The notes under the pieces: generated by a model
The model's input: the letters and a program-made list of their open reading frames with translations, nothing else
Database searches by the model: none
Told to the model about the DNA's origin: nothing
Translations under genes and position numbers: made by a program
Origin: Squalus acanthias
Taxonomy: Eukaryota
Length of the DNA: 64,000 bases
Assembly (NCBI GenBank): GCA_030390025.1
Contig: CM059432.1
Span: forward strand, 24,740,001-24,804,000
Reading direction: 5' to 3'
Part shown: piece after piece, positions 4,870-64,000 of the stretch
How positions within the stretch are numbered: the first letter of the stretch is position 1
Layout of the letters: each line of letters opens with the position of its first letter

Positions 4870-4945
4870 GCACAGAAACAGAAAATGCTGGAAACACTCA
4901 GCAGCTCAGTCAATATCTGTGGAGAGAACAGTTAAGCTAATGTTT
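4870..4945 (-). mobile_element. Penelope-type short repeat fragment (same family as 17011-17170, ribozyme core missing)
   Basis: AAACAGAAAATGCTGGAAACACTCAGCAG...ATCTGTGGAGAGA is the reverse complement of the 3' part of the 17011-17170 insert. Confidence 0.65.
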
Positions 4946-6169: not shown

Positions 6170-8890
6170 TAACCGTCTCCTTAAACCCCTCTCCCCTCCA
6201 CCCTCAGCTCCAATGATAAGAGGAGCAAATGGACTTCTTAATCACTAAGATTGGGACCATCTGTCCAACTGCCTCGACTGCATTCTCCACCCTTCTCCTT
6301 ACCCACCAAGCCAAATTTCCCATATGGTTGCACCCTGCCCTACCTTTGAACCCTGCATCTTTCTCTGGTTTATCTCCTGTCTCCCCTCATGCCCTCTCTG
6401 AGCTCATCTTTTTCATAAGACTCACCTCCTACTCTCTCAACCCTATTCTTACTAAACTGCTGACCACCCAGCCTCCCTTTTTGGCCCCGATGCTAGTTGA
6501 CATTATAAATAGTTTCCCTCTCCTTGAGTACTATTATCCCTTTCAAAACTGCCTCGCTACTCAAAAGACCCACTCTCAAAACCCTCTGCCTTTGCAAACT
6601 ACCGCCCATTTCTAACCTTCCTTTCCTCTCCAAAGTCCTTGAACATGTTGGGGGAAAAATTCAGTATCGCCCCGTTTGGGGCGCCATTATCGGCCGTGCG
6701 CAAAGTTTAGTGCCTGGCGCTAATTATCGCCTCCGACTGCAAACTTGACTTTTATCGCCCCTGGAGGTGATTGGGGCGCTAAATCAGGCGCTACACACCT
6801 GTCTTAAGGCGCAAAGGCCGAGCAGTGAGGCGCTAACTCAGAGCGCGGGCACAGCGCAGGTGCTGTCAGTTAGATATGGAGCACAGACACACTGGCGCCG
6901 GCCAGTTCTTAAAGGGGAGGGTTAATTTTGCTCTCCATCCACATCCTGCTCATTGCAGCCTTGAATCTCGGCCTGGAGAGACCTGTACATCAAATCTGCT
7001 GGAAAGAACAATGGAGAGTACCAGGGAAAGAGCTCAGAGTGCAGCCCTCACAGTCTCTTTTGAATCGATACAAGGAAGGGCAAATCAAAATGAACCTGCA
7101 AAGTGCTGCTCAGTACCCAAAACTCCTTCACACAGCGTTGAATCTCTCCAGAAGTCTCTCTCTCTCTCTCTCTCTCAGAATGCATGGCGCAAAAATGTCA
7201 CCAACAAAAAAAGGCAGGAAGCGGTCGCCTTTAAATAGCGATCCCCCAGTCCCTTCCTGACTGCAAAACACTCCCCTCAACCTGTCGTTGCTAGCGGCAG
7301 GCGGTAAGGTAGGGGGCGCCACTCAATATCCGGTCCGGGGCGCTACCGGGGCATTGCGCACTCGACTGACGTCACGATCTGCCGGCGCAGGAGATCGTGG
7401 CAGTAGTGTTTAGTGCCGCCGCAAAATGTCTGGTTAATTTCGTGAGCGGCGCAAACATCGCCGCGCACGGGCGCTAGTTGCTTTGCGCCCCATTAGCGCC
7501 CTCTTAAGGCGCTAACGGTAGGCACAAACCAACTGAATTTTTCCCCCGTTGTCTCTTCCCACATCTGTACCCATCTTTACCGCAACTACATGTCTAAATC
7601 CTTCCAATCAGGTTTCTGTTCCTGCCACATCACTGAAACAACCCTAATCAAAGTCACAAATGACATTCTCTGTGATAGATCCTCATGCATTCTCTCTCCT
7701 CATCGTTCTCGAACTCTCTGCAGCCTTTAACACTGTCGACCACACCATCCTCAACCAAGGCCTCTGCACCGTTGACCAGCTGAGTGGGACTGTCCTCGTT
7801 TGGTCCAACTCTTACCTATCCGATTGTAGCAAGAACATCTCCTGCAATGACTTCTCTTTCTGCTCCAGCACCATTAGTCTAGAGTCCCCCAAGGGACTCC
7901 TTGGCCTCCTCCTCATCTACATGCTGCCCCTCAGTGACATCATCAAAAGACATGGCATCAGCCTCCACATGTATGTTGATGACAGCCAGCTGTACCTCTC
8001 CACCATCTCTCTAGACCACTCCACTGCCTCTGTGTTGTCAGTCTGCTTGTCTGACAGTCAGACCTGGATGATTGCCTCCAATTATACATTGAAAACACTG
8101 AAGCCATTGTCTTTGGCCCCCACCACAAACTCTGTTCCCTAGCCACCAATTCATCTCCCTCTCCAGCTACTATTTAAGGCTGAACCAGACTGTTAGCAAC
8201 CTTGATGTTCCATTTGAACCTGAGCTGAGCTTCCAACTCCATGTCCGCTCCATCACAAATCTCGCCTACTTTCACATCCATAACATTGCCTGTCTCTGCC
8301 CCTGCCTCAGCCAATCTGCTGCTGAAACTCTCATCCATACTTTTGTCACCTCCAGACTGGACTATTCCAATGCTCACCTGGTTGGGCACCCATCCTTCAT
8401 AAACTTGAGTTTATCCAAAACTCTGCTGCCCGCATCCTAACCCGCACCAAATCCCACTCACCCATCACCCCCTGTGCTCACTGATCCACATTGGCTCCCG
8501 ATCCACCAACCCCTCAAATTTAAAATTATCATTGTTTTGTTCAAATCTCTCCACGGCCTCACCCCTCTCTATCTCTGTAACTTTCTCCAGCCCTAGGAAC
8601 CCCCGAAAACTCTGCATTTTTCCAACTGTGGCCTCTTGTGAATCCTTTACTAGCTTCGCCCACTATTGGTGGTCGAGCCTTCAACCGACTAGGCCCAAAG
8701 CTCTGGAATTGAATCCCAAACCTCTCCACCACTCCATCTCTCTCTCCTCGTTAAAACCTACCTCTTTGACGAAGCTTTTAGCCACCCTCCCTTTATATCT
8801 CCTACCTTGGCTCAGTGCCAATTTTTGCCTGATTGCACTTCTGTGAAGCTCCGTGGAATGTTTTACCATGTTAAAGGTGCTATATAAATA
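6170..8890 (+). mobile_element. L2 LINE, decayed ORF2 (RT) plus 3' end, split by a MITE
   Basis: Frameshifted RT motifs PISNLPFLSKVLE, LELSAAFNTVDH and HMYVDDSQLY. Tail TTAAAGGTGCTATATAAAT. Confidence 0.9.
6650..7547. mobile_element. PIF/Harbinger-type MITE (898 bp), copy 1
   Basis: Perfect TIR GGGGGAAAAATTCAGT and TSD GTT (6647-6649 / 7548-7550). The L2 sequence rejoins across it. Second copy at 46326-47218. Confidence 0.92.
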
Positions 8891-8976
8891 TGAGAAGTCG
8901 CACAACACCAGGTTATAGTCCAACAGATTTATTTTAAATTACAAGCTTTCGGAGCTGTTGCCCCTTCGTCAGATAG
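8891..8976 (-). mobile_element. Penelope-type terminal-repeat fragment carrying a minimal hammerhead motif
   Basis: Same family as 9970-10193. The minus strand reads CUGACGA-A-GGGGC-AACA-GCUCC-GAAA-GC-UU. Confidence 0.7.
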
Positions 8977-9969
8977 AGTTACAATGAGGGAATCTACAAT
9001 ATTTCACAGTATAAATATAGTATAAATATAGTTGTTGTCATTGTTGTTGATGACAGACGGAGTCAAGCTTGGTTGTGACACACTCCCAGAGGCAAATGGC
9101 CTGCCGGCACTCTGGGGGTTCAAGTGGGGTACTCTGTCGCACTGGTGCAACTTCGGCAAAACAGGCAAGGAAGCCCTGGATAAACAAGCACGGGTGGTGG
9201 AAGAAGAAACCCTAATCGTTTTCAAGAAGGAACTAAACTGGCTCTTGTCAGCAAATGGGATACAGGGTTATTAGAAACGTAACGAGGGAATACTCTGGAT
9301 AGATGGACTGGAGGTCTTCTCCTGCCTGAAACTGCTACTAAAGTTACGGTGTATGAGCAGAATAAAGCGGCGTGGAAATGCATCTCTTCACTCTCACACA
9401 TGAAAAATGCCCATTATAACGAATTATTGGAAGGCAGCCAGTATCCATGGAACTGTATCCCAACAGTTCAGTAATGGACGGGAGAAAACTGGAGAAAAAG
9501 CTGCAGAGAATATTCTCATTATGTTGGGCTATGATGCAGCAATAACCACCTTCATGCTGTTTGCCTCCAGATATGTAGAGTACAAATCAATATTGGCAAA
9601 CGTATAATAAACCGCATGGACATCTGCCAGGAGTAGAAAATGTACTGCACATTTATTCTTACATTTGCTTGTAAGAATTCTGAGTCTTTAGTGAAGGATT
9701 ATTTTCATTTGGTATCTCTGTAAGAGAAAGATCCCCTCACTCCCTAAAGTTGGGACTGTTGGTGCCACATAGCAACCCACAAAGGAAACAAAAACACTTC
9801 CACTGTACTACAGCAGTTGGATTGAATATGAAAGGGAGCACATTATCTTTTACTCCCTCTCATTTTCTGCTGCCCTCCTTGCTGCTACTTGCTGGGGTCT
9901 TTTTTCTTTTTCTTTGGCATTGCATCAATAATCGTGTAAGATTATTTCTCAGCCTAAAAAAAAGTAGCC

Positions 9970-10193
9970 ATGATGCGGAGATGCCGGTGTTGGACTGGGG
10001 TGGACAAAAGTGAGAAGTCGCACAACACCAGGTTATTATCCAACAGCTTTATTTGAAATCACAAGCTTTCGGAGCGCTGCTGTGCCCATATGTATTTCTT
10101 CACTTCACCTGACGAAGGAGCAGCGCTCCGAAAGCTTGTGATTTCAAATAAAACTGTTGGACTATAACCTGGTGTTGTGCGCCTTCTCACTTT
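9970..10193. mobile_element. Penelope-type inverted terminal-repeat remnant
   Basis: Arms of about 75 bp (10007-10081 and 10119-10193) are inverted repeats, and a hammerhead core overlaps the right arm. Inverted pseudo-LTRs carrying hammerheads are characteristic of Penelope-like elements. Confidence 0.75.
10105..10141 (+). ncRNA. Minimal type-I hammerhead ribozyme motif
   Basis: UCAC-CUGACGA-A-GGAGC-AGC-GCUCC-GAAA-GC-UU-GUGA: stem I (UCAC/GUGA), conserved core, perfect 5-bp stem II and palindromic minimal stem III. Confidence 0.75.
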
Positions 10194-10459
10194 AAAAAAA
10201 AAGTAGATTGGAGTTTTAAGATTGTCCATGTCTTTGATAAGCATTTAGATGGCTTTGTAAACCAATCCTAGAGAGACATACTTTACCACAACACTCATAT
10301 ATCCCAGTTGATGGTGTAGTCACAGCAGATGGACATTCTTTCCTCTGTCTATGTTTCCCTTCTTCTTTGGCAATCCTAGCTTGTTCAAACTCGTTAACAT
10401 CCTGAATCTCCTACTCTGGCCTACTCCTGCTCCTATTTCTTATGTTCTTATGTTCTTAT

Positions 10460-10700
10460 CCACACGGATCACCACAGTTTGCAGTCTTTGATGGATTCCT
10501 CCCATGTATTGATGCCAATCTCATATTTCTTCAGAGTGGATTTTAAACTATCCTTATATCTCTTTATCTGGCTGCCAACACCGCTGTGGGTGGCTCTCAG
10601 TTTGAAATAAAAGAGCTGTTTTGGGAGTTTGGAGTCATCCATTCGGTATACATGGCCAGACCAGCAACGTTGGGCTTTGATATCCATAGCTTCAATACTG
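10460..10700 (-). mobile_element. RTE-clade LINE, ORF C-terminal fragment
   Basis: WSGHVYRMDDSKLPKQLFY...RYKDSLKSTLK resembles the RTE/BovB C-terminal motif (RWxGHVxRM...PKxxxYGEL). Confidence 0.8.
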
Positions 10701-11338
10701 GTACAACTGGTTTTTGAGTAAATAAAACTTGCTGGGGTATAGTTATATGGGCAGCAGTAGCTCTACAGTATCTCACCCAATTGGCCACCCATCATGTGTG
10801 ACTGTTGACAGTGGAAAATAGAAAGATTACATTTATATAGCAGCTTTCACGACTTCAGGACATCCCAAAGCGCTTTAAAACCAATGAAGCACTTTTGAAG
10901 TGCAGTCACTGTTGTAATGTAGGGAAATACAGCAGCCATTTGCTGCAAAGCAAGCTCCCACTAAAACAAAAATTAAATAAATGACCAGATTATTTGTTTT
11001 AGCTGTTGGTTGAGCGATAAATATTGGCCAGGACACCAGGAAGAACACCCCTGCTCTTCTTCGAATAGTGCCGTGGGATCTTTTATGTCCACCTGAGAGG
11101 GAAGACAGGGCCTTGATTTAATGGCCCAAAAATTCGTGAGGAAGCCTTTGTGCGAGGGTAAGGCCTCCCCACGATCTCTCACTCCGCGTTGGCTTTTTCA
11201 GTTCCAGCTCGCACGAACTTGATGTTCTGGACAGCTGCTGTGCTGGGCTTGCGTATCCCACCGGCGTAGTTAATTTGTGCGAGCTGTGGGATCACGTGAC
11301 TCAGTTAGAGCCAATGGCAGCACACCATCTTCCATTCA

Positions 11339-13221
11339 CACTGAATGAATATTTTGTATCAGTCTTTACAGTAGAAGACACTAAGAATATCCCAACACTG
11401 GACAAACAGGGGGCTATAGGGGGAGAGGAGCTAAACACGATCAAAATCACTAAGGAAGTGGTACTCGGTAAAATAATGGGACTCAAGGCGGATAAATCAC
11501 CTGGACCTGATGGCTTACATCCTAGAGTCTTGAAGGAAGTGGCGGTAGGGATTGTAGATGCATTGGTAATAATTTTTCAAAACTCCCTGGATTCCGCTAA
11601 GGTCCCGGCAGACTGGAAAACTGCTAATGTAACACCCTTATTTAAAAAGGGCAGTAGACAGAAGGCTGGTAACTATAGACCGGTTAGCCTAACATCTGTG
11701 GTAGGTAAAATTTTGGAGTCCATTATTAAGGAAACAGTAACAGGACATTTGGATAATCATAATTTAATAGGACAAAGTCAGCATGGTTTTACGAAGGGGA
11801 AGTCATGTTTGACAAATTTGCTGGAGTTCTTTGAGGAAGTAACATATAGAGTGGATAAAGGGGAACCAGTGGACGTAGTGTATTTAGACTTCCAAAAGGC
11901 ATTTGACAAGGTGCCACACAAAAGATTATTGCTTAAGGTAAAAAATCACGGAATTGGGGGTAATATTCTGGCATGGATAGAGGATTGGCTATCTAACAGA
12001 AAGCAAAGAGTTGGGATAAATGGTTCATTCTCAGACTGGCAATCAGTAACTAGTGGTGTTCCACAGGGGTCAGTGCTGGGTCCCCAACTCTTCACAATCT
12101 ATATTAACGATTTGGAGGAAGGGACCAAGTGTAACATATCAAAATTTGCAGATGATACAAAGATGGGAGGGAAAGTAGTGAATGAGGAGGACATAAAAAA
12201 CCTGCAAGGGGACATAGACAGGCTAAGTAAGTGGGCAGAGATTTGGCAGATGGAATACAACACTGGAAAGTGTGAGGTGATGCACTTTGGCAGGAAAAAT
12301 CCTAGAGCAATTTATTATCTTAATGGCAAGAAACTGGAGAGTACTGAAGTGCAAAGGGATCTGGGGGTCCTGGTGCACGAAACTCAAAAGGTTAGTATGC
12401 AGGTGCAGCAAGTGATTAAGAAGGCAAATGGAATGTTGGCTTTCATTGCTAGGGGGATAGAATATAAAAATAGGGAGGTATTGCTTCAGTTGTACAAGGT
12501 ATTGGTGAGACCGCACCTGGAATACTGCATACAGTTTTGGTGTCCTTACTTAAGGAAAGACATCCTTGCTCTCGAGGCAGTGCAAAAAAGGTTCATTCGG
12601 TTAATCCCGGGGATGAGGGGGTGGTCATATGAGGAGAGGTTGGGTAGATTGGGACTCTACTCATTGGAGTTCAGAAGAATGAGAGGCGATCTTATTGAAA
12701 CATATAAGATTGTGAAGGGGTTGGATCGGGTGGATGCGGGGAGGATGTTCCCGATGACGGGTGAGACGAGAACTAGGGGACATAGTCTTAGAATAAGGGG
12801 CTGCTCTTTCAAAACTGAGATGAGGAGGAACTACTTCACTCAGAGGGTGGTAGGTCCATGGAATATGCTGCCACAAAAAGCTGTAGAAGCTACAACATTA
12901 ATTAAATTTAAAACAGAAATAGACAGTTTCCTAGAAGTAAAGGGCATTAAGGGTTACGGGGAGCGGGCAGGAATTTGGACATGAGTCTAGGTTCGGATCG
13001 GTCATGGCCCTGTGGGTAGTGGAGCGGGCCCAGGGACTGTGTAGCCTAATTCTGCTCCTATTTCGTGTGTGCAATTCTGTTAGATGCAGGAGATGGTTCT
13101 GTGATAGATAGTAGATTGGCGGTTAGGATCAGATCAGCCATGATCTTATTGAATGGCGGAGCAGGCTCGAGGGGCCGATTGGCCTACTCCTGCTCCTATT
13201 TCTTATGTTCTTATGTTCTTA
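11339..13221 (+). mobile_element. CR1 LINE, 5'-truncated, young
   Basis: Intact RT ORF, CR1 3' UTR and a (TTCTTATG)n tail. Confidence 0.95.
11341..12984 (+). CDS. CR1 ORF2 reverse-transcriptase domain and C-terminus (5'-truncated, no endonuclease)
   Basis: Uninterrupted frame with KSPGPDG, NYRPVSLTS, QHGF, YLDFQKAFDKV, GVPQGSVLGP, KFADD and RPHLEYC. The first ~22 codons of the track ORF (from 11275) come from the flanking MITE. Confidence 0.93.
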   Translation: MNEYFVSVFTVEDTKNIPTLDKQGAIGGEELNTIKITKEVVLGKIMGLKADKSPGPDGLHPRVLKEVAVGIVDALVIIFQNSLDSAKVPADWKTANVTPLFKKGSRQKAGNYRPVSLTSVVGKILESIIKETVTGHLDNHNLIGQSQHGFTKGKSCLTNLLEFFEEVTYRVDKGEPVDVVYLDFQKAFDKVPHKRLLLKVKNHGIGGNILAWIEDWLSNRKQRVGINGSFSDWQSVTSGVPQGSVLGPQLFTIYINDLEEGTKCNISKFADDTKMGGKVVNEEDIKNLQGDIDRLSKWAEIWQMEYNTGKCEVMHFGRKNPRAIYYLNGKKLESTEVQRDLGVLVHETQKVSMQVQQVIKKANGMLAFIARGIEYKNREVLLQLYKVLVRPHLEYCIQFWCPYLRKDILALEAVQKRFIRLIPGMRGWSYEERLGRLGLYSLEFRRMRGDLIETYKIVKGLDRVDAGRMFPMTGETRTRGHSLRIRGCSFKTEMRRNYFTQRVVGPWNMLPQKAVEATTLIKFKTEIDSFLEVKGIKGYGERAGIWT

Positions 13222-15153
13222 TAACTTTCACATAAGTGCTGTGAAAGTTATGAATACTATAGCCCCCCAAAAGAACCGCTAAACCTCAATTAAATTTTTA
13301 AAAAAAACCATCACATTAATAAAATAAGTATAGTTAAATAAATTAACCATTTTAAATAAAAAGTAAATTTTTGAAAAAATTTAAAATCTTTTAAAAAGTT
13401 ATAAAAATAAACTTACCTGTCTTTAAAGTCTCTAAAAAAGATATACCTGTTAAAAAAAATTCAAAATAATACTTAATTCACTACTTACCTTGTTAAAAGT
13501 GGGTCTTACTCCTCCTTTTTTTATGTCTAGAATCTTCCGTACTTACCTGCGCGTTGAAACCACTAAGTGCACAGCGTGCGTGCAGCCTGTAGCGCGCACG
13601 CGGTTCACCTAGGACCCGCCCCCTTTTCCATTCACCAAATGCCGGTTTACAGCGCATGCGCAGTGCATGCAGAAAACCGGCAATTGGAGACAGAATACGC
13701 GAGAGTACACAGTGCGTACTCTCGCGTAGTGGGACTAATTTTTGGGCCATTGTCTTATCTGAAAGACAACACCGGCAACAGTGCAGCACTCCCTCAGTAC
13801 TGCACTGAAGTGTCAACCTAAATTATGTGCTCAAGTCTCTGGCGTGTGGCTAGCTGCCACAACCTTGTGACTCAGAGGCAAGGGTGCTACCGCTGAGCCA
13901 CAGTTGACACTGAATCACAGTCGAGCCTCATTCGGTCCTTACCCAACATCCACACATACAATTTCCAGTAGAGGTCACTGGATACTAATCAGGAACAGGA
14001 GCCCGTGCTGATTATTTGCCCTCCCCTACTCCCTAGCCCAAGTATGCTGATTCCAATCCCACCACATCAACTGCTACCCCAGCTGAAATCAGATAACTTT
14101 ACCAGCTGAGTCATTGGGGGAATGCATCAACAGACTAATTGATTAACACATAAAAGGATGAGACCAACAAAGCTTACTGAGCCACTCGGGGCCAGCAGTG
14201 CGATGCCCCAACAACAAAATAAGTGAGTATGTTATTTAAATTTTCTAAATCATTGAGGAATCAATGTGAGACAGGTCACTGTGGCAACAGAACAAAAAGA
14301 AAGAAGCTAAAGAAAAGTGTGTTCATAATAAATTTTAGGTGCTGCATTATTCATGCTGATGCACAGGTAGCTGTTGAGCTGGTAGAATTAAGCAGAATTG
14401 ATCTTCTGCTTTTATGCTCAGACATATCAATACTATTTGTACTTCCACTCCTCAGACCAGATAAATTATTGATTAACTTCAAAAGAACATGTGTTTCAAT
14501 GTACAATGTGGCCCTGCTGATAGCTTGCAGTTGTAACCAAGTCCTTGAATTCTTCAAGTTCAAATTCCCTTTTGATCTTGAAAGATTTGATTTAACTCTG
14601 TAATTTCAGCTGCTATTGTGAGCCTAAGTAGATAAAGGTTCACAAAAAAAACAATTGCACAGTTTTTCAATGGCTCAATTGCTACTGCCTCATGTGGTAC
14701 TGAGCCCCATACATCAGGTAAACTCTCCCTCCTCATCTTTCTCAACTTGTCTGCAGTCTTTGACATGGTTGACCACTCCTTCCTCCTTCAATGCCTCACC
14801 ACCCTCGTTCAGCTGGGTGGGACTGCACTCACCTGGTTCCATTCTTATCTATCTAATTGTAGCCAGAGAATCACCTGCAACAGCTTCTCTTCCCGCTCCT
14901 GCACTGTTACCTCTGGTGTCCCCCAAGGATTTAGCCTTGGCCCCCTCCTATTTCTCATCTTCATGCTGCCCCTTGGCGACATCATCCGAAAACACAGCGT
15001 CAGTTTCCACATGTGCACTGACGACACCCAGCTCTACCTCACCACCACCTCTCTCGACCCCACCAGTCTCTAAATTCAGTCTGCTTGTCTGACATTCAGT
15101 ACTGGATGAGCAGAAATTTCCTCCAACTAAATATTAGGAAGACCGAAGCCATT

Positions 15154-16900: not shown

Positions 16901-17010
16901 AGGTGTGTCTTCAAAGGCAGCAGCAACCAAGCATAAAAATTTAAGAAAAGTCATAGGAACATTGGAATCGCTAGACGAAGAAAGACCAAGGCCCATCTAG
17001 TTCACCTTCT

Positions 17011-17170
17011 GTTCCATTTCCTGCTTTTTTCCAGTTCTGACGAAAGGTCATCGAACTGAAACGTTAACTCTGTTTCTCTCTTCACAGATGCTGCCTGACC
17101 TGCTGAGTATCTCCAGCATTTTCTGTTTTTACTTCAGATTTCCAGCATCTGCAGTATTTTCTTTTTGTTG
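17011..17170 (+). mobile_element. 160-bp Penelope-type non-autonomous retro-insert carrying a hammerhead motif
   Basis: Flanked by the exact 13-bp direct repeat TAGTTCACCTTCT (16998-17010 / 17171-17183). Related copies at 4870 and 62867. Confidence 0.8.
17033..17069 (+). ncRNA. Minimal type-I hammerhead ribozyme motif
   Basis: AGUU-CUGACGA-A-AGGUC-AUC-GAACU-GAAA-CG-UU-AACU: stem I AGUU/AACU, stem II with one mismatch and a palindromic AACGUU stem III region. Confidence 0.72.
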
Positions 17171-17929
17171 TAGTTCACCTTCTACTTTCCTGGTAACTGC
17201 ACGATACAATGATAATGGAGTTGTTGACTAATTATAGCAATCAGTCTCCATCAATTATTCTACAGCAGGCCCAGCCATGACGCGAGGAAAACCCGAGTGG
17301 TGGAAAGCTTTGGGAACCATAGGTCCAAAGTGACCTGTTCCTTCTAAGCATGCTACACTCACCACATGTCATATCTCAAATTACTCACCTATGGTATCCC
17401 AAAATGTTATTTAGCAGGGGAAAAAAATGCAAAAATTGGAGGAGTACCCTGCAAAATTAATCAATGCATGTAACAAAATGCAGCTAAGGAAATAGGGAAA
17501 TGCATAACCTTTGCCCTTTAAGAGGCCCACTTGAGTAGATGAGGTCTCCACGACTCTGATGTGCTCAATGCTTATGGGCGAGGCTCGTGCTGTGGGTGTA
17601 GCCTCACGCAAACTCGTAAAATTCTGTGGGAGGCCTGAATGGCCTAATTTAAGTATCATGAGGCCCATGCATATTGGTTGCACAGCCTCTCTAAACCACT
17701 CAAAATGGCACCTTATAAAATTAAGCAAATTGGGCACACAAGGTTGCTCACCTGATTTTACAAACTGCAGTCACTGCACACAAGGCCTAACAAAATCAGG
17801 GCTCGTAGTTTTAAACTAAGCTTCTCGGTCTCTGGCAGCTTTATGAGGAGATCTGTCAGATCATCAGATTTCTGCAGTTTTCCATATTTGTTGGCTTACT
17901 AGAATGTTTTTTTTTTTCTATTGCTCTAC

Positions 17930-22305: not shown

Positions 22306-22489
22306 AGAGGCAGGACACGCGACCAGAGGCAGGACACGCGACCAGAGGCAGGACACGCGACCAGAGGCAGGACACGCGACCAGAGGCAAGACACGCGACC
22401 AGAGGCAGGACACGCGACCAGAGGCAGGACACGCGACCAGAGGCAGGACACGCGACCAGAGGCAGGACACGCGACCAGAGGCAGGACAC
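22306..22489. repeat. Minisatellite, 19-bp unit AGAGGCAGGACACGCGACC x ~9.7
   Basis: Head-to-tail units with a single G>A variant and no spacers. Confidence 0.97.
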
Positions 22490-23549
22490 TTGAGCCGCTG
22501 CAGTTCTTTCATAGTACAACCTACTTGGTTTAGCTTCGACAGCATTTGCTTGGGTTGTCTGAAAAAAATCTGGTCTCAACTAGATTTCTTTGCAATAAAA
22601 GTAAATGGAGTAAATTTTCAAATTACTGCCCAGGCGTAAAACTAGCTGCCCATTATAGAAACCGTTCAATTTCATTTCCATATATCTACCCCCATATTTT
22701 CCACTTGCCTCTGTGTCTCATGATGTAGAGGTGTTAATTATTAATGTTATTAAGATTTTCAATGAATTTTCCTCAGCGGCCAAGTAAGCCTCTAAACTCT
22801 AGCTTTAATCCCAGTATCCTTCTGCTCTGCCCTGGCCCTATCCAGTTTTATACTTGGCAAAGTATGACAGCTCCACTTCCATACTAAACAAAGCTGACAT
22901 TCAAAAGTTGTGACCACCTGCTTGTTGTTCGTCACACTGTGTCTTTCCTTGTGTGACGAAGATGTCCTATTGTAATGTGCCTCTTAGCCAGTGCTGTACT
23001 GGCCTTGGTATACCATATGTCTGATCTCCCTTGATTTTGAAAGATAGGAGGAAGGGTCATCTTGGTAACCCTGTCATCTTTCCAATCCCAGATCTGTCCT
23101 ACCTTTTTTTTTTACATCTGCTTCAAGGATTATTTAATTTCCATACCATGTCCTTGAGTTCTCTTCTCCCCATGGATCCTTCACCTGACTGTCCTTCAGT
23201 CATTGACAGAGTGACTTGGAGGCCAAATGTAAACAGGTTGTGGCTGAGGAGCCTTATGTTCAAGGTACTTCATTAGCATTATAACACCAAAGAGCAGGGG
23301 ACAGTAAATATTTGTGTTGAAGTACTAAATACAGGTTCATTCTTAAAGTTTCACCAACACAGAAACAAGCTAAGCTTCTCAATGCTGTTTTTTTATTTTA
23401 ACTTTTTTTTCTTTCCTCCTTTACCTGTTAAATTTCTCCTCTTCTCTCCTGATGGGGGTTATATTGCTTGCTGGGGTCAACTAAATGCTGATTTTTTCAT
23501 GTATGAGCCCCATTTTTCACTGCTGCCTATTGAATAGCACTCAGAACCA

Positions 23550-28491: not shown

Positions 28492-28979
28492 ATTTTCTTT
28501 TTTTAAACAAATAGAAATGGAACTATAGTCTAAAGCTTCTTTACGTGTCAGCCTTGGCTCAGTTGTAGCACTCTCATCTGAGTCAGTAGGCTGTGGGTTA
28601 AAACCCTACTCCAGAGACATTAGCACATAATCTAGGCTGGCACTTCAGTGTAATACTGAGGGAGTGCTGCATTGTCAGAGGTGCTGTCTTTCAGATAAGA
28701 CATTAAACCAAAGCCCTGTGCCCCCTCATGTGGATGTAAAAGGTTGCATGGTACTACTCAAAAGAGATTAATTTCTTTGAATAGTACCATGCGACCTTTT
28801 ACATTCTCCTGGTGTCCCGGTCAATATTTATCCCTCAACCAACAATGCTAAATAAAATAGATTATCAATCTATAATCTCATTATTGTGGTGTCGGAGGTA
28901 GGGCTTTAGATTATTGTTTGTGCGGCTTGGCTGTGCGCAAATTGTCGGTCGTGTTTTACCTACATTAAAACGGTGACTA

Positions 28980-34491: not shown

Positions 34492-36283
34492 AAGCTGAAT
34501 TTTGCCGGCGCTCAGAGTGCGGGTTTGGAGGCGGATCCGCTGTCAAAATCGAAATGATTGACAGTGGGTTGGGAACCCGCTCCGAACCCGCCTCCATGTA
34601 AGTTTCCAAAGTGTCGGGTCTGTGATTTCAGAACAGACCCGACACCAAGCGGCGGGGGAGGCATTTAAGATGGTTAAATGCTTGTTAAACGCTTGTTAAC
34701 TACTATTTTGCCAGCCTATTTCTATTTTCCCACTTTTTTAACAGGGTTCACATCATTCAGAGAGCACGTCAGGTAAATAGGTCGGGTTCTCTAAAACGCC
34801 CTATTGCTGTGAATAGGTGACAGCTGCAAAAGTGGTATGAAAACTACCATTTCACAGCTGTTTACTTTCCAATGTCAAAAGCTTGAGCCTTCAGGACTTG
34901 GAAGACACTTTTGAGCTGTATGCAGTTTGGAAGTGTTTGGAGTAAACTCTCTATCCACTGTCACCTCCTTGAAGCAACCTCTCTCATCATTGACAGATTG
35001 CTTCTGTCATCTCAACTTCAGCTGCCATCTATTCCATTAGCATCGGTGCCCTTGAAAAACTCTTACCCTGGTCCTCTGAATCCTTCCATGATCAGCCCCA
35101 ACACCAACATCACCAGACACACCAACATCACAACAACAATACCAACCTTCTCCGCCATCACCTGATGCTGCACAGGACACAGGGCATCAGCTCTCAACAA
35201 CATTGCTGTCTGGGAGGCCAGCGATGGTATCACCATGACCAGATTTACTTCACTTGACGCTATACACCCTGGCTGCCACATGATGTGCCAGGTTGGCAGC
35301 ATCCCACACCAGCACCATAAAGCATCCCTACAATGTCCAAGCCATTCCTTTCACACTCATCACAATTGGCGGGGGGCGGGAAGTTATGTCTCAATATTCA
35401 CTGGAACTCACTAAGACACTTCCAAATGTGAGCACAGATTTGTCCAATAAGGTAAAGTGTTGAAAATATAGATTTCAATGTTTGACAACACATTAACAGA
35501 AACTTCACACTAACATTGGCTAAACCACCCAGGTGACTACCCTTGTGTGTTGTTAGTTGGTATGCTTGCAGTAGATTGAGGGTGAATGTGAAGGGTGGAT
35601 AGTGAGATGGGGAAGTGATAATGTAGATAGAGAGGGATGGGTGGAGGTGCAAGGTAAGTGGGTGTGAGTAAGGATGTGCAGGAGTAGGGTAGGGAAGGCA
35701 GAGTGATGGGGATGTGATGAGTGGCACAGCAGGATGTGGTTGAGTGTGGCTTGGCAGTAACCTTTTGTGATCTGCTCAGATCATTGAATGGTTTGTGCCA
35801 CTGCAGCCTGGTCCTCCTGACAACATCCCTGCTTGTGTCCTCCTGTGCAATGTGCAACCAGGCTGCGTTGATCTCCTGGGGAGTTCTCTTTCGCCTATGG
35901 GAAGGGAAGAGAACCTCCCTGCGTGCTGTAACTCCCTTCATAAACATATGGAGGGAGTCATGGGAGAGCCTGGGTGCAGCTGTGCACCTTTGTACAGTGC
36001 TTGTCAGTGTTTGCAGCACCTCAATGCTGTAGAACACTGACAGCAGAACTGTCAAAATCAATTTGGACATGGCCCCTTTAAGGAAACCGGCTGATGACGC
36101 ATCATCAAATGACGTCATTAGACCCGCTTCGTATTAATTGGCTGGGAACCTTGCTGGGCGGGCTTAACAAGCCCAATCAATGAAAAATCGCTTGGAGAGT
36201 GCGGGCTGCAGCAGGCAGCGGGCTGGGACCGTGACACCGACCCCGGCCGCCCCGGACCCACCTCAGTTGGTGAAATCGTGGCC
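34492..36283 (-). mobile_element. Non-autonomous Harbinger with Myb/SANT ORF (copy 1)
   Basis: Minus-strand ORF 35537-36118 has PRLSHDSLHMFMKGVTARREVLF...WLHIAQE...RTRLQWHKPFNDL. Right end GAAATCGTGGCC; left TIR degenerate. Confidence 0.85.
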
Positions 36284-39883: not shown

Positions 39884-42790
39884 GGGCTAAATTTTGCCGG
39901 TGCTGAGAGGGCGGATTCGGAGGTGGGTCCACTGTCAAAATAGAAGAGATTGCAGCGGGTAGTGAACCCGCTGTCATCCCGCCTCCACGTGAGTCCCATA
40001 GGTGTCGGATTACATAGGATTACATAGTAAATACGGCACAGAAACAGGTCATTCGGCCCAATCAGTCCATGCCAGCATTAATGCTCCACATGAGCCTCCC
40101 CCAGTCTTTCCTCATCTAAATCTATCAGCATAACCCTCTCTCCTAATCTCTTCATATTCTCCCTTATCATGCACTCCCCTGTGTAGTTAATGCATGCCTC
40201 TTTCCTTGCCCTCAATTGTTCCCTTATGGCTTTATTCATCCATGAAGTCTCATTATTGTTTAGTTTGTTCTTTCCTTTTAGCAGAATATATTTTTCCTGC
40301 ACTCTGTTGAACACCGTTTTAAATGTTTCCATTGCTGTTCTACATCGTTGTTTGCCAATATTGTTGCCCATTTTTTCCCCCCCAAGTTCTATTCTCAGCC
40401 CCTCAAAATCAGCTTTTCTCCAATCTATTACCCTGGTTTTGGTCATACTTATGTCCTTCTCAATCATCATCTTAAAGCATGTTATATTATGGTCACTATT
40501 GTCTATATGTTGCCCTACTTTTACTTCTCTTATCTACTCTGGTTCATTCCCCATTACTAGATCCAATAGCGAATCCTCCCTTGTTGGGCTTTTTACCTAT
40601 TGGGTTAGAAAGGAGTCCTGTACACATTGTAGGAACTCCATTCCCTTATCCCCTTTACCTACCTCTTCTGTCCAATTAATATTGGGGTAGTTGAAATCCC
40701 CATGATTATTATTCTATATTTTTTCCTCATTTACCTAATTTGTCTGCATATTTTTTCCTCCACCTCCCTTCCACTATTAGGTGATCTATAGACTACACCT
40801 ATTAGTGTGATTGATCCTTTATTATCTTTTATCTCTATCCATATGGATTCTATTTTTGTCTTGCTGACATCTGCATCACTTTTTTCTACTGCCATTATAA
40901 GTATCCCTAATAAGTACAGCTACTCCACCTCCCCTTTTTCCCTCCCTGTCTTTTCTAAATATGTTATACCCTGCAATGATTAATTCCCAGTCCTGATTTT
41001 TCTGTAGCCATGTCTCAGTAATCCCCACTATGTCTGGTTCCTCGCAATGCATGATTGCCTCCAGCTCCCCTGTTTTATTATGGACACTGTGTGCATTGCT
41101 GCACAGACAGTTTAACTCATATTTAATAGGATTTCCTCTCACTTCGTCGCTGACCAGGCCCAACACCAAGCGGCGGGGGAGACAATTGACATAATTAAAT
41201 GGATTGTTAACATCCAATTAAGTATTATTTTATGCCTACATTTCAATTTTACGTGCTCCCCCATGGGTTACCCGTTGCTCGGCTTAGCATGTCGTGAGTG
41301 GATTCAGCATTGAATTATCTCATGATCTGACAGCTGCTAAAGTTGTATAAAAGATCCCATGTTACAGCTGTTCACTTTCAAAGCTCAGAAACTGTTGGTT
41401 ACAGCATTTGGAAGACATATTTCGGCAGCTTGCAAGTATTTGGAGCCAACTCTCTATCCAGTGCCACCTCATTGGAACAACCTCTCTCACCATTGACAGA
41501 TCGCTTCTGTCATCTCAATCTCACCTGCCATCTATCCCAGCAGCATCGTTGCCCTTGAAAATATCTCACCTTGGTCCTCTGAATCCCACCAAGATCAGCC
41601 CCAACACCTGCATCACCGGGCACATGAGCAGCACCAACAACATCAACCTTCTCCGCAATCAACTGCTGCTGCACAGGGCATCAGTACCTGACCGCATTGC
41701 TGCCCGAGAGGCCAGGGATGGACTCACCATGGCCAGATTTACTTCACTTGATGCTGTACACCCTGGCTGCCACATGATGTGCCAGGTTGGCACCACCCCA
41801 CACTAACACCATAAAGCATCCCTACAATGCCCAAGCCATTCCTTTCACACTTGTAACCATTGCAGGGGGCAGGAGGGTGGGGGGAGCCGGGGTGCGGGTA
41901 CTGTTATGTCTCACCATTCACTACAACTCATGCTTCCAAAGGTGCACACAAATCTGTCCAAGAACGCAAAGTGCTGAAAATAAAGATTTCAATCTTTGAC
42001 AGCACCTTAACAGAAACTTCAAATGAACATTGGCTAAACTACCCAAGTGCCTACCTTTGTGTGTTGTTAGTTGGTATGCTTGCAGTAGGATGAGAGTGAG
42101 TGTGAGGGGTGACTAGCCAAATGGGGAAGTGATAATGTAGATAGAGGGATGGGTGGAGGTGCAAGTTAAGTTGGTGTAAGTAAAGATGTGCAGGAGTAGG
42201 GTAGGGAAGGCAGAGTGATGGGGATGTGATGAGTGGCACAGCAGGATGAGGTTGAGTGTGGCTTGGCAGTAACGTTTCGTGATCTACTGAGATCATTGAA
42301 AGGTTTGCGCCACTGCAGCCTGGTCCTCCTGACGACATCCCTGCTTGTGCCCTCCTGTGCAATGTGCAACCAGGCTGCGTTGATCTCCTGGGAAGGTCTC
42401 TTCCACCTATGGGAAGGGAAGAGAACCTCCCTGCGAGCTGTGACTCCCTCCATAAGCATATGGAGGGAGTCATGGGAGAGCCTAGGTGCTGCCCTGCACC
42501 TTTGTGCAGTACTCCTCAGTGTTTCAAGCATCTCAATGCTGTAGAACACAGAGCACAGAACTGTCAAAATCAATTTGGACATGGCCCCTTTAAGGAAACT
42601 GGCTGATGACGCATCATCAAATGACATCATCAGACCCGCTTCCTTTTAATTGGCCGGGAACCTCACAGGGCAGGCTTAACAAGCCCAATCAATGATAAAT
42701 CACTTGGTGAGTGCGGGCTGCAGTAGGCAGCGGGCTGGGACCGTGACACCGACCCCGGCCGACCCGGACTTGGTCGGCGAAATCATGGCC
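39884..42790 (-). mobile_element. Non-autonomous Harbinger with Myb/SANT ORF (copy 2), containing a CR1
   Basis: Ends GGGCTAAATTTT / GAAATCATGGCC with TSD CAT (39881-39883 / 42791-42793). Minus-strand Myb ORF at 42166-42630. Confidence 0.88.
40008..41135 (-). mobile_element. CR1 LINE with endonuclease region joined directly to its 3' UTR (RT deleted)
   Basis: APE motifs (NAHSV, DIVGITETW, RGGGVA). The tail matches 26320-26430, with the junction at ~40137-40140. Confidence 0.88.
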
Positions 42791-57057: not shown

Positions 57058-58825
57058 GGCCGGAATTTTCCGGGGTAGTAGCGGCCACGAACGGTGGCGG
57101 GTCAGGTGGGAAAGTTGTTATTTTTGACAGTGGATCGGGTACCCGCTGTCATCTCGCTCCCACACGCCTTTCCACCAGGCATATCTGTCATCGCGGAGCT
57201 GACCCGACTGGTTGGCGACCCAATTGAGATGATTAACAGCTAGTTGTCAGACACTTAACAGGCTTTTTTAACTTACTTTTTAAATTTAACTGCATGGCCA
57301 CGGTAACCACACCGCTCGGGAAGCACGCCTGTCAACCTGAGGCGGGAGTTCCATGGCCATTGCTCCAGCTGATTAGTTGATAGCATCAAATGCACAATAA
57401 AAGTGACAGATAATCACTTTCCTCAGGCAGAAGTTGTTGCTCAGTCCATTTCCAGCACTGATTCTGCAGGCTGCAAGTCTTTCCAGCAAAGTCTTCATCC
57501 AGTCTCACCTCAATGGAAGAACTCTCTCACCATAGACAGAATGCTTCTGTCATCTGTACTTCACCTGCCATCTATTCCATCAACATGGGTGCCATTTATA
57601 CTGTCTCACCTTAGTCTTCAGAATCTGACCATGATGAGCCCCAACACCAGCAGCACCAACAACAACAACACAAAACCTTCTCCGCAATCACCTGATGCTG
57701 CACAGGGCACAGGGCATCAGCACCCGAGCACATTGCTGCCCGGGAGGCCAGGGATGGCCTCATCATGGCCAGATTTATTTCACTTGATGCTGTACACCCA
57801 TACGGCTGCCAAAAGATGCGCCAGGTTGGCACCACCCCACACCAACACCATAAAGCATCCCTACAATGCCCAAGCCATTCCTTTCACACTCATCACCATT
57901 ACGGGGGGTACCGTTATGTCTCACCATTCACTGCAACTCACTAATCCACTTCCAAAGGTGCACACAAACGTGTCCAAGATGGGAAAGAGGGGAAAATAAA
58001 GATTTTTATATTTGACACTATATTAACAGAAACTTTACATAAACATTGGATAAAACACCCAAGTGGCTATCCTTGTGTGCTGTTAGTTGGTATGATTGCG
58101 CTAGGATGAGGGTGGGTGTGAGGGGTGGCTAGTGAGATGTGGAAGTGATAATGTAGATAGAGAGAGAGGGATGAGTGGAGGTGCAAGGTATGTTGGTGTG
58201 AGTGAGGATGTGAAGGAGTAAGGTATGGAAGACAGAGTGATGGGGATGTGATGATAGGCACAGCGGGATGAAGTTGAGTGTGGGTTTGTAGTCATGTTTC
58301 TTGATCTAATGAGAGCAAATAAAGGTTTGCGCCACTGCATCCAGGTCCTCCTGACCACATCCCTGCTTGTGCCCTCCTGTGCAATCTGCAACCAGGCTTT
58401 TTTGGTCTCCTGGGGAGGTCTCTTCCACCCATGGGAAGGGACGAGGACCCCCCTGCGTGCTCTGACTCCCTCCATAAGCATATGGAGGGAGTCATCGGAG
58501 AACTTGGGTGCAGCCCTCTGACTCTGTGCAGTGATTGTCAGTGTTTGCAGCACTCCAATGCTGTAGTGCACTGACAGCACTATGTTAGATTAAACGTCAA
58601 GTCTAATGTGGCCATGGTCCCTTTAAAGATCCCAGCTGAAAACGCATCATGAATGACGTCACCAGACCCGCTCCATTTAATTCATCCGGGTAACGCGCTG
58701 GGCGGTCTTAATAGGCCCTATTAATGTAAGTTAATTTTCAGCAGCAGGATGGAGCCAGCAGTGGGGTCACGACTTGCCCTGGCCACCGCCCGCTCCGGAC
58801 CGCCCAGGCAGGCAAAATTCTGGCC
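57058..58825 (-). mobile_element. Non-autonomous Harbinger with Myb/SANT ORF (copy 4, both ends intact)
   Basis: TIRs GGCCGGAATTTT / GGCCAGAATTTT and TSD TTA (57055-57057 / 58826-58828). Minus-strand ORF PKFSDDSLHMLMEGVRARRGVL...RRTWMQWRK. Confidence 0.9.
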
Positions 58826-62655: not shown

Positions 62656-62866
62656 CAGATGCTACCTAATTTTTAGGCCATTATTTTCTCCAGTGGAGGA
62701 ATCCAGAACAAGAGGGCATAACCTTAAAATTAAAGTTAGGCCATTTGGGGTGATGTCAAGAAGTATTTCTTCACACAATGGGTAGTCAAAATCTGCAATT
62801 CCCTCCCCCAAAAATATGTTGAGGTTAGGTCAATAGAAATTTCAAAACTGAGGTTGATAGATTGAC

Positions 62867-62899
62867 AGTTCTGATGAAAGGTCATCGACCTGAAATGTT
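62867..62899 (+). ncRNA. Truncated hammerhead motif (17011 family), cut by a Harbinger insertion
   Basis: AGUU-CUGAUGA-A-AGGUC-AUC-GACCU-GAAA-UG-UU, followed directly by the TIR GGCCGTGATTTT. Confidence 0.7.
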
Positions 62900-64000
62900 G
62901 GCCGTGATTTTACTAACCTCGGCGGGTCCATGGCGGGCGACGTCAGTGACGGGTCCCGACCCCGCTGCTGTCTTCATCACGGCCTCTGAAATGAATTTCC
63001 CCTGATTGGACTTGTAAAGCCAGCACAGCGCATTTGCCGGCCAATTAGAGGAAGCGGGTCTGGTGACGTCATTTGATGACGCGCCATCAGCCAGTTTCCT
63101 TAAAGGGACCATGCCCAAATTTAGTTTGACATTTGTGCTGTCAGTGTTCTACAGCATTGAGGTGCTGCAAACACTGACAAGCACTGCACAAAGGTGCAGG
63201 GCTGCACCCAGGCTCTCCCATGACTCCCTCCATATGCTTATGCTTATGGAGGGAGTCACAGCATGCAGGGAGGTCCTCTTCTCTTTCCATGGGTGGAAGA
63301 GACCTCCCCAGGAGATCTACACAGCCTGGTTGCACATTACAGAGGAGGGCACAAGCAAGGATGTGGTCAGGAGGACCTGGGTGCAGTGCCACAAACGTTT
63401 CAATGATCTCTGTAGATCACGAAACATCAGTACAAAGCCACACTCACCTTCATCCTGCTGTGCCTCTCATCACATCCCCATCACTCTGCCTTCCCTACCC
63501 TACTCCAGCACATCCTTACTCACATCAACTTACCTCCACCCATCCCTTTCTATCTACATTATCACATCCCCATCTCACTAGCCACCCCTCAAACTCACCC
63601 TCATCCTAGTTCAATCATACCAACTAACAACACACATGGGTAGGCACTTGGGTGTTTTATGCAATGTTCATGTAAAGTTTCTGTTAATGTGGTGTCAAAC
63701 ATTAAAACCTTTATTTTCAACACTTTGCGTTCTTGGACAGATTTGTGTGTACCTTTGGAAGTGGCTTAGTGAGTTGCAGTGAATGGTGAGACATAACAGT
63801 ACCCCCTGCAATGGTGATGAGTGTGAAAGGAATGGCTTGAGCATTGTAGGGATGCTTTATGGTGTTGGTTGGGTTGGTGCCAACCTGGCGCATCATGTGG
63901 CAGCCAGGGTGTGCAGCTTCAAGTAAAGTAAATCTGGCCTCCCGGGCAGCAATGTGGTCGGGTGCTGATGCCCTCTGTCCTGTGCAGCATCAGGTGATTG
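62900..64000 (+). mobile_element. Non-autonomous Harbinger with Myb/SANT ORF (copy 5, runs off the window)
   Basis: TIR GGCCGTGATTTT. ORF 63063-63581 has PRLSHDSL...WLHITEE...RTWVQCHKRFNDL, the best match here to the Myb/SANT-like RTxxQCxKRWxDL motif. Confidence 0.88.

Follow-up and report, generated by a model that had tools for sequence, protein, structure and literature searches.

In the 64,000 nucleotides of Squalus acanthias DNA analysed here (GenBank assembly GCA_030390025.1, contig CM059432.1, positions 24,740,001 to 24,804,000; hereafter the window), a minimal hammerhead ribozyme motif lies within a long foldback. Such a layout raises the question of whether the inverted arm belongs to a functional RNA that controls the ribozyme, or whether it records the way in which the sequence arrived at this place. 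The evidence favours the second answer. With a probability of about 0.86, we take the segment 9968-10192 to be a single insertion, dead on arrival, of a high-copy Penelope-like retrotransposon (PLE), and its long hairpin to be a decaying by-product of integration.

Anatomy and decay of the insertion

The foldback had drawn attention in a sequence-only reading, which described inverted arms of about 75 bp in a unit of about 190 bp. The arms, 10007-10081 and 10119-10193, have this length and are complementary at 71 of 75 positions without gaps, the longest among the 25 inverted repeats of the window with arms at most 400 nt apart. The region 9970-10230 folds into one long hairpin of -139.9 kcal/mol (z -15.2), a value matched by none of 200 shuffles. 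The hairpin therefore stands as described; its extent does not, the unit being 225 nt long (9968-10192) and lying inside a target-site duplication (TSD; Table 1). The two TSD copies measure 13 and 14 nt, and their 12-nt exact match is equalled nowhere else when 9,096 slot pairs of the same spacing across the window are compared, this locus being the only one to reach it; the match being of low complexity, its position was weighed as much as its length.

Table 1. Features of the foldback insertion and of its sister copy (window positions)
Feature	Position	Strand	Basis or remark
Left target-site duplication, T-A8-GTAG	9955..9967	+	12-nt exact match to right copy; low complexity (A run)
39-nt 3' tail of the element, left copy only	9968..10006	-	Family-level depth begins in bin 9939-9997; family end near 9970
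Left arm: antisense 3' end of the putative pLTR, reaching back into hammerhead stem II, without the CUGAnGA core	10007..10081	-
4-nt microhomology TGCT at the head-to-head junction	10078..10081		Left arm end and sense copy start
Sense, 5'-truncated copy of the putative pLTR, 115 nt, with short tail-less 3' end	10078..10192	+	Contig pieces, loose ends
Minimal type-I hammerhead motif	10105..10141	+	Motif parse; predicted cleavage between 10137 and 10138
Right target-site duplication, T-A9-GTAG	10193..10206	+	Match to left copy
Sister-subfamily copy, non-inverted, tail-less, sharing hammerhead core and 3' end with the foldback element	8891..9020	-	8-nt direct repeat at ends

Between the TSD copies, a left copy of 114 nt (antisense 3' end plus 39-nt tail) faces a right copy of 115 nt, which is sense and tail-less. 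The 37-nt loop of the hairpin (10082-10118) is the upstream part of this sense copy, and pieces of the latter occur in contigs of two sequencing runs (10078-10179 in X6, 10078-10167 in X5). The tail is absent both from the right copy and from the copy at 8891. The insertion holds no ORF, and the stretch from the hammerhead to the short end has a stop in every frame. The only ATG, in sense direction, terminates the tail at its outer end (9968-9972, minus strand), and the ORF of the element may begin with it.

These asymmetries also bear on a two-step origin, in which a template switch during replication or repair made an inverted duplicate of a solo pLTR that was already in place. The junction microhomology would fit repair too. 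Yet the tail is found on the left only, the upstream sequence on the right only, and one TSD surrounds both; a single integration explains all three, and we give the two-step origin only a very remote chance.

The arms have begun to decay. Each of their four mismatches breaks a pair (U-C, U-U, A-C, C-A), none being G-U or compensatory. Their divergence of 4/75 (5.3%, 95% CI 1.5-13%) does not differ from that of the orthologous flank, at 50/935 in organism C and 57/935 in organism B (Fisher P 1.0 versus the arms for both). Nothing suggests that pairing has been maintained, and the arms diverge like neutral DNA, four mismatches making for a weak test.

Orthologous contigs of organisms B and C align over exactly 9021-9955, that is, between this insertion and its sister copy, and continue beyond these points with other letters (75 in run X7). 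From these alignment end points, the insertion appears to be absent at the orthologous site of both organisms, and the 8891 site seems likewise to be empty there; no empty-site joint is found among the best 15 of 359.

In organism A, single-copy contigs of two samples cross the left edge (9300-9990 in X2, 9730-9986 in X5). No listed contig bridges the central or the right junction, and the former point is what an assembly or library artefact would have in its favour. Set against the four arm differences, the TSD and the left edge crossed in both organism A samples, an artefactual foldback is hardly conceivable.

A dispersed repeat family with variable junctions

The contigs of four runs (organism A twice, B and C) were aligned to 8700-10450. 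In all four runs and all three organisms, the summed contig depth over 9939-10174 exceeded the flank depth by a factor of about 10^4 to 10^6, which is not a copy number. The repeat is thus dispersed and very high-copy. No match to it was found in viral contigs, metagenome contigs or prokaryote genomes.

The contigs also delimit the family. In run X5, the flanks of 70 contigs are unlike one another before 9970 (agreement 0.38), so that a family end lies there. In run X2, 55 contigs diverge in this way before 8886 (agreement 0.36); they mark a second 3' end, near 8886-8891, which corresponds to the short end at about 10190. Before 10078, 72, 43, 112 and 24 contigs in the four runs share one upstream sequence (agreement 0.62-0.91); the loop therefore belongs to the family, and 10078 is where the sense copy is truncated at its 5' side.

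Over 82 nt, the copy at 8891-9020 is 91% identical to this element (E 1e-27). On its hammerhead side, bin 8936-8994 has a depth of 171 in organism C, where the A and B runs reach about 10^6, and the sister subfamily seems to be rare in organism C. This minus-strand copy sits at the edge of another high-copy repeat.

The junctions of other copies show how often the head-to-head layout recurs. Among the best 15 of 359 joints, 14 are head-to-head (antisense, then sense) and one is a partial tandem. The joints were ranked by support, so that deep ones are over-represented; their sides span only 19-28 nt at a likeness set at 85, and short joints of this kind often stem from repeats or from other organisms. 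The 14 listed head-to-head joints have 14 different breakpoint pairs. A whole hammerhead is found in either arm in two of them and is missing in the other 12, the CUGAnGA core being kept in three. We also considered that both cDNAs might always be of equal length, as the 114 and 115 nt of this insertion would have it; this gained no support, the arm-end offsets ranging from -17 to 95 in the 14 joints (outer ends unseen).

Some joints are deep or shared: depths among those listed run from 11 to 898, versus 3-59 in single-copy flank bins, and 6 of the 14 occur in at least two runs, five of these in two organisms. They may mark hot spots, insertions that are old and shared, or foldbacks of which a few were mobilised again. 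Another reading would make the foldback itself the mobile unit, a MITE-like non-autonomous PLE derivative whose fixed palindrome is copied whole. The same depths and sharing would be the argument for it, certain junction forms being perhaps multi-copy, or else hot spots. A fixed palindrome would fit poorly with 14 joints with 14 different breakpoint pairs, drawn from a support ranking that over-represents the deep ones; the sole sister copy in the window is non-inverted, and contigs matching from 10078 run upstream as ordinary sense family sequence. We hold a mobile foldback to be improbable.

The arm ends of the listed joints are unevenly placed. The interval 10117-10141, which opens with stem II and closes with stem I, holds 13 of 28 arm ends, where 5.3 or 6.9 are expected (P 0.0008 or 0.010 under two uniform nulls); stem II holds 7 of 28 (P 0.016 or 0.060), and 10135-10141, within 3-4 nt of the predicted cut, holds 5 of 28 (P 0.014 or 0.041), all for windows picked post hoc, on a support-ranked subset of joints and under a null that ignores the natural distribution of truncation lengths. 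The left arm of 9968-10192 likewise ends in stem II.

In other copies, several head-to-head joints have the stem II hairpin at their centre (10075 to 10120 or 10124, 10076 to 10125) or begin near the predicted cut (10136-10141).

One reading of the clustering would make the mini foldbacks twin-primed products of a PLE dimer, with a cDNA begun at each of two reverse-transcription start sites, and with the points where cDNAs stop and join set by the stem II hairpin and by the 5' end of the cleaved RNA. We regard this as doubtful, and the clustering at stem II and the cut site as a weak lead for an assembly-wide census. If it were true across the assembly, the insertions would preserve, as fossils, a record of how the hammerhead folded and cut in vivo. 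In the parts of Frangieh et al. (2024; PMC11167929) compared here, in vivo hammerhead cleavage went undetected in RNA reads.

The hammerhead motif and the arm that would trap it

The hammerhead of the foldback had been taken for a complete minimal one, belonging to a second family distinct from a motif at 17033. The motif can be parsed into stem I (10105-08/10138-41, 4 bp), the core CUGACGA (10109-15) with an extra A at 10116, stem II (10117-21/10125-29, 5 bp with a 3-nt loop), GAA (10130-32) and AGCUU (10133-37). The parse holds as first given, but helix III amounts to one A-U pair that encloses a GC loop, so that "complete" applies only in the sense of a minimal motif of the dimer type. CUGAnGA and GAAA boxes, helices I and II, an extra nucleotide after A9, a G10.1-C11.1 pair and a palindromic 15-16 region are all present. 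As far as parse and letters can tell, this is a genuine minimal type-I hammerhead motif, as first supposed.

A core scan found four motif loci in the window (8972-, 10109+, 17037+ and 62871+), versus 0.10 per simulated window, and the strict form (stem II of at least 5 bp, stem I of at least 4 bp) at one of the four, versus 0.01; the background came from 100 first-order Markov simulations of the window. Two families emerge, the motif at 10109 grouping with that at 8972, and the motif at 17037 with that at 62871, which bears out the distinction drawn earlier. Except at N7, the core letters are invariant in 4/4 motifs, a conservation comparison that rests on these four. The element's sole core is on the plus strand, its minus strand having no CUGAnGA core.

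The plus-strand copy of the other family (17011-17170) is non-inverted and flanked by a perfect 13-nt direct repeat (16998-17010 and 17171-17183); one of its stem II pairs is broken. Fragments of the same family lie at 62866-62899 (+) and 4876-4927 (-).

Rfam returned no hammerhead model among its seven matches over the whole window (E up to 1), and none among its two matches over 10082-10192 (E up to 10). The miRNA-precursor matches over the hairpin (mir-3660, MIR7696 and MIR396) were dismissed: they score far below their gathering thresholds and reflect pairing only. Taken alone, the 47-nt motif forms its stems with a probability of 0.85-0.99, and its fold is no better than that of shuffles (z -0.74). 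For the other three motifs (8972, 17037 and 62871), the minimum-energy structure is not the full hammerhead fold. This counts against reading each of them as active, and is as expected for decayed or dimer-dependent motifs.

The left arm changes the predicted folding. In the whole element, the hammerhead fold would cost 36.6 kcal/mol, with a pairing probability below 0.001 for stems I and II; in a transcript ending at 10141 it would still cost 25.1 kcal/mol. Without the left arm, the cost falls to 2.2 kcal/mol, and stem formation is predicted at about 20%. The comparison of 36.6 with 2.2 kcal/mol agrees with the earlier proposal that the left arm would trap the ribozyme in a read-through transcript, so far as folding models go.

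Whether such trapping has a function is another matter. The sequence-only reading had seen in it either self-inhibition or a dsRNA substrate, and a functional RNA module would silence the hammerhead, or feed siRNA or A-to-I editing pathways, in a read-through transcript. A plus-strand transcript would, on modelling, form the 75-bp hairpin with hammerhead stem pairing below 0.001, and incidental dsRNA is plausible, given that rotifer PLE copies are a source of small RNAs in the sections compared of Arkhipova et al. (2013; PMC3846280). No RNA dataset was listed as covering 9400-10900.

The weight of evidence nevertheless opposes a module. The arm mismatches include no compensatory or G-U change and stand at the neutral level, and the insertion is apparently missing from the orthologous site of two organisms that are about 5-6% diverged. 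Foldbacks are common in the repeat family and mostly lack a whole ribozyme, which is hard to reconcile with a device for silencing one. No host-gene domain appears in the 150 open frames scanned, a scan that would miss short exons. A lone minimal motif would require a partner in any case: a single minimal hammerhead motif showed no cleavage in what was available of PMC4209133, and the anole motif was cleaved only with protein in the corresponding part of PMC11167929. There may thus be little activity here to inhibit; by the same token, absent cleavage of a monomer would refute nothing. With a published type of PLE integration product, varied junctions that cut through the ribozyme and neutral-like arm divergence, the functional interpretation finds no support, and we consider a module highly improbable. 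As part of the PLE-insertion explanation, the hammerhead is very likely an ordinary motif of the element's pLTR, passively carried.

Probable Penelope-like identity, possible route of insertion and known systems

A 5'-truncated inverted pLTR, a tail at one end, an A/T-rich TSD and a dispersed, multicopy distribution are structural traits of PLEs, and all are found here. From them we infer the identity of the element, an RT/GIY-YIG ORF being unlinked to it. The earlier lead towards Penelope seems to have been well chosen, since the inverted truncated pLTR, the tail of 30-40 nt, the TSD and the minimal hammerhead all match by analogy. Of the 321 window frames of at least 62 aa, the 150 longest were scanned against Pfam without a GIY-YIG match; the matches were confined to transposon domains (RT, endonuclease, GDSL/OSK and Myb/SANT).

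Other mobile elements populate the window. At 11140-12984 (+), an open frame of 614 aa contains RVT_1 (E 4e-31) and is presumably CR1-like; further RT fragments lie at 14636, 24870, 30889, 31507 and 37306, and a GDSL-type frame at 28910. A repeat with a Myb/SANT-like frame, which we take to be Harbinger-like, has copies at 35540-36133, 42169-42645, 58104-58589 (-) and 63018-63578 (+), three of the four with a PF13873 match. At 22306-22495 stands a young tandem array of about 10 units of 19 nt, 96-100% alike. An isolated hairpin at 28727-28811 (36-nt arms, z -8.3) scores 38.5 bits with the let-7 model against a gathering score of 53.5; it has either a precursor-miRNA-like shape or is a small foldback remnant.

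As for the route by which a PLE would leave such an insertion, we lean slightly towards twin priming from both cut strands. The element's endonuclease would make a staggered cut in an A/T-rich target, the 3' overhangs providing two primers and, in the end, the TSD of 13/14 nt. The plus-strand primer would be extended into a 114-nt antisense cDNA from the outer (tail) start site, and the minus-strand primer into a 115-nt antisense cDNA from the inner (short) start site. The 3' ends of the two cDNAs, complementary over 4 nt, could then be joined head to head by microhomology. Twin priming would, in our own inference, account together for the asymmetry of the tail, the microhomology and the TSD.

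Snap-back self-priming of a single cDNA, with one tail trimmed, is favoured less and has well under even odds; the minus strand does read as a cDNA that used those 4 nt to fold onto itself. Self-priming was proposed for inverted junctions in the text compared of PMC3846280, and endonuclease resolution was suggested for the tail in that of Craig et al. (2021; PMC8557442). Among the titles listed for Penelope inverted insertions and twin priming, none concerns the PLE mechanism, and a search on shark Penelope hammerhead ribozymes listed one review; neither result shows the subject to be unpublished.

The segment 9968-10192 belongs to the great number of truncated copies that a common retroelement has left, and its layout has been known from descriptions since 2013. 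Its interest is that of a compact teaching case, with TSD, tail, microhomology and hammerhead within 250 bp. Going further, a census of junctions in this genome could test twin priming against snap-back, as well as the cutting of the template by the hammerhead in vivo.

Dimeric PLE hammerheads have reportedly been described by Lunse et al. in 2017. The minimal hammerheads of PLEs, in the main-text parts of PMC4209133, regularly have an extra nucleotide that separates positions 9 and 10.1, a G10.1-C11.1 pair and a palindromic helix III region, and are mostly single and in truncated copies. Helix II counts 5 bp at 10105-10141, versus 7-8 bp in the Schistosoma families described there. The present family goes unmentioned in those main-text parts, and the supplements may list it.

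The Poseidon element PAc of Anolis carolinensis offers a biochemical counterpart. According to the portions of PMC11167929 at hand, its protein, a predicted dimer, cuts and extends both strands and prefers A/T-rich DNA, two start sites bound the tail, and insertion in vitro is independent of hammerhead cleavage. PAc and this element are alike in their two 3' end points bounding a tail downstream of the hammerhead and in their A/T-rich target. They differ in coding capacity, the PAc ORF running from stem II through the tail, where this element has stops in all frames.

Non-LTR retrozymes, as presented in the parts compared of PMC7229834 and bioRxiv 10.64898/2026.07.22.740005, resemble the insertion in that a short, non-coding repeat, akin to PLE pLTRs and flanked by a TSD, carries a type-I hammerhead. 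Their units are arranged head-to-tail, each with a hammerhead, whereas 9968-10192 is head-to-head with one core, on the plus strand; a tandem retrozyme was ruled out on this ground.

The closest parallels are the insertions of EN+ PLEs. An inverted 5'-truncated copy with a 30-40-bp tail at one end is typical of PLE insertions in the text consulted of PMC8557442, and that of PMC3846280 describes inverted pLTRs, a 31-bp tail and TSDs of 8-10 bp in rotifers. Compared with the examples in these excerpts, the TSD is longer here (13/14 nt versus 8-10 nt in rotifer PLEs), the junction shorter (4-nt microhomology versus a 15-38-nt overlap or palindrome), and both copies, at about 115 nt, are without ORF. 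In the head-to-head truncated copy, the overlap at the junction, the tail at one end and the TSD that encloses the whole, the insertions described in these two sources and 9968-10192 are alike.
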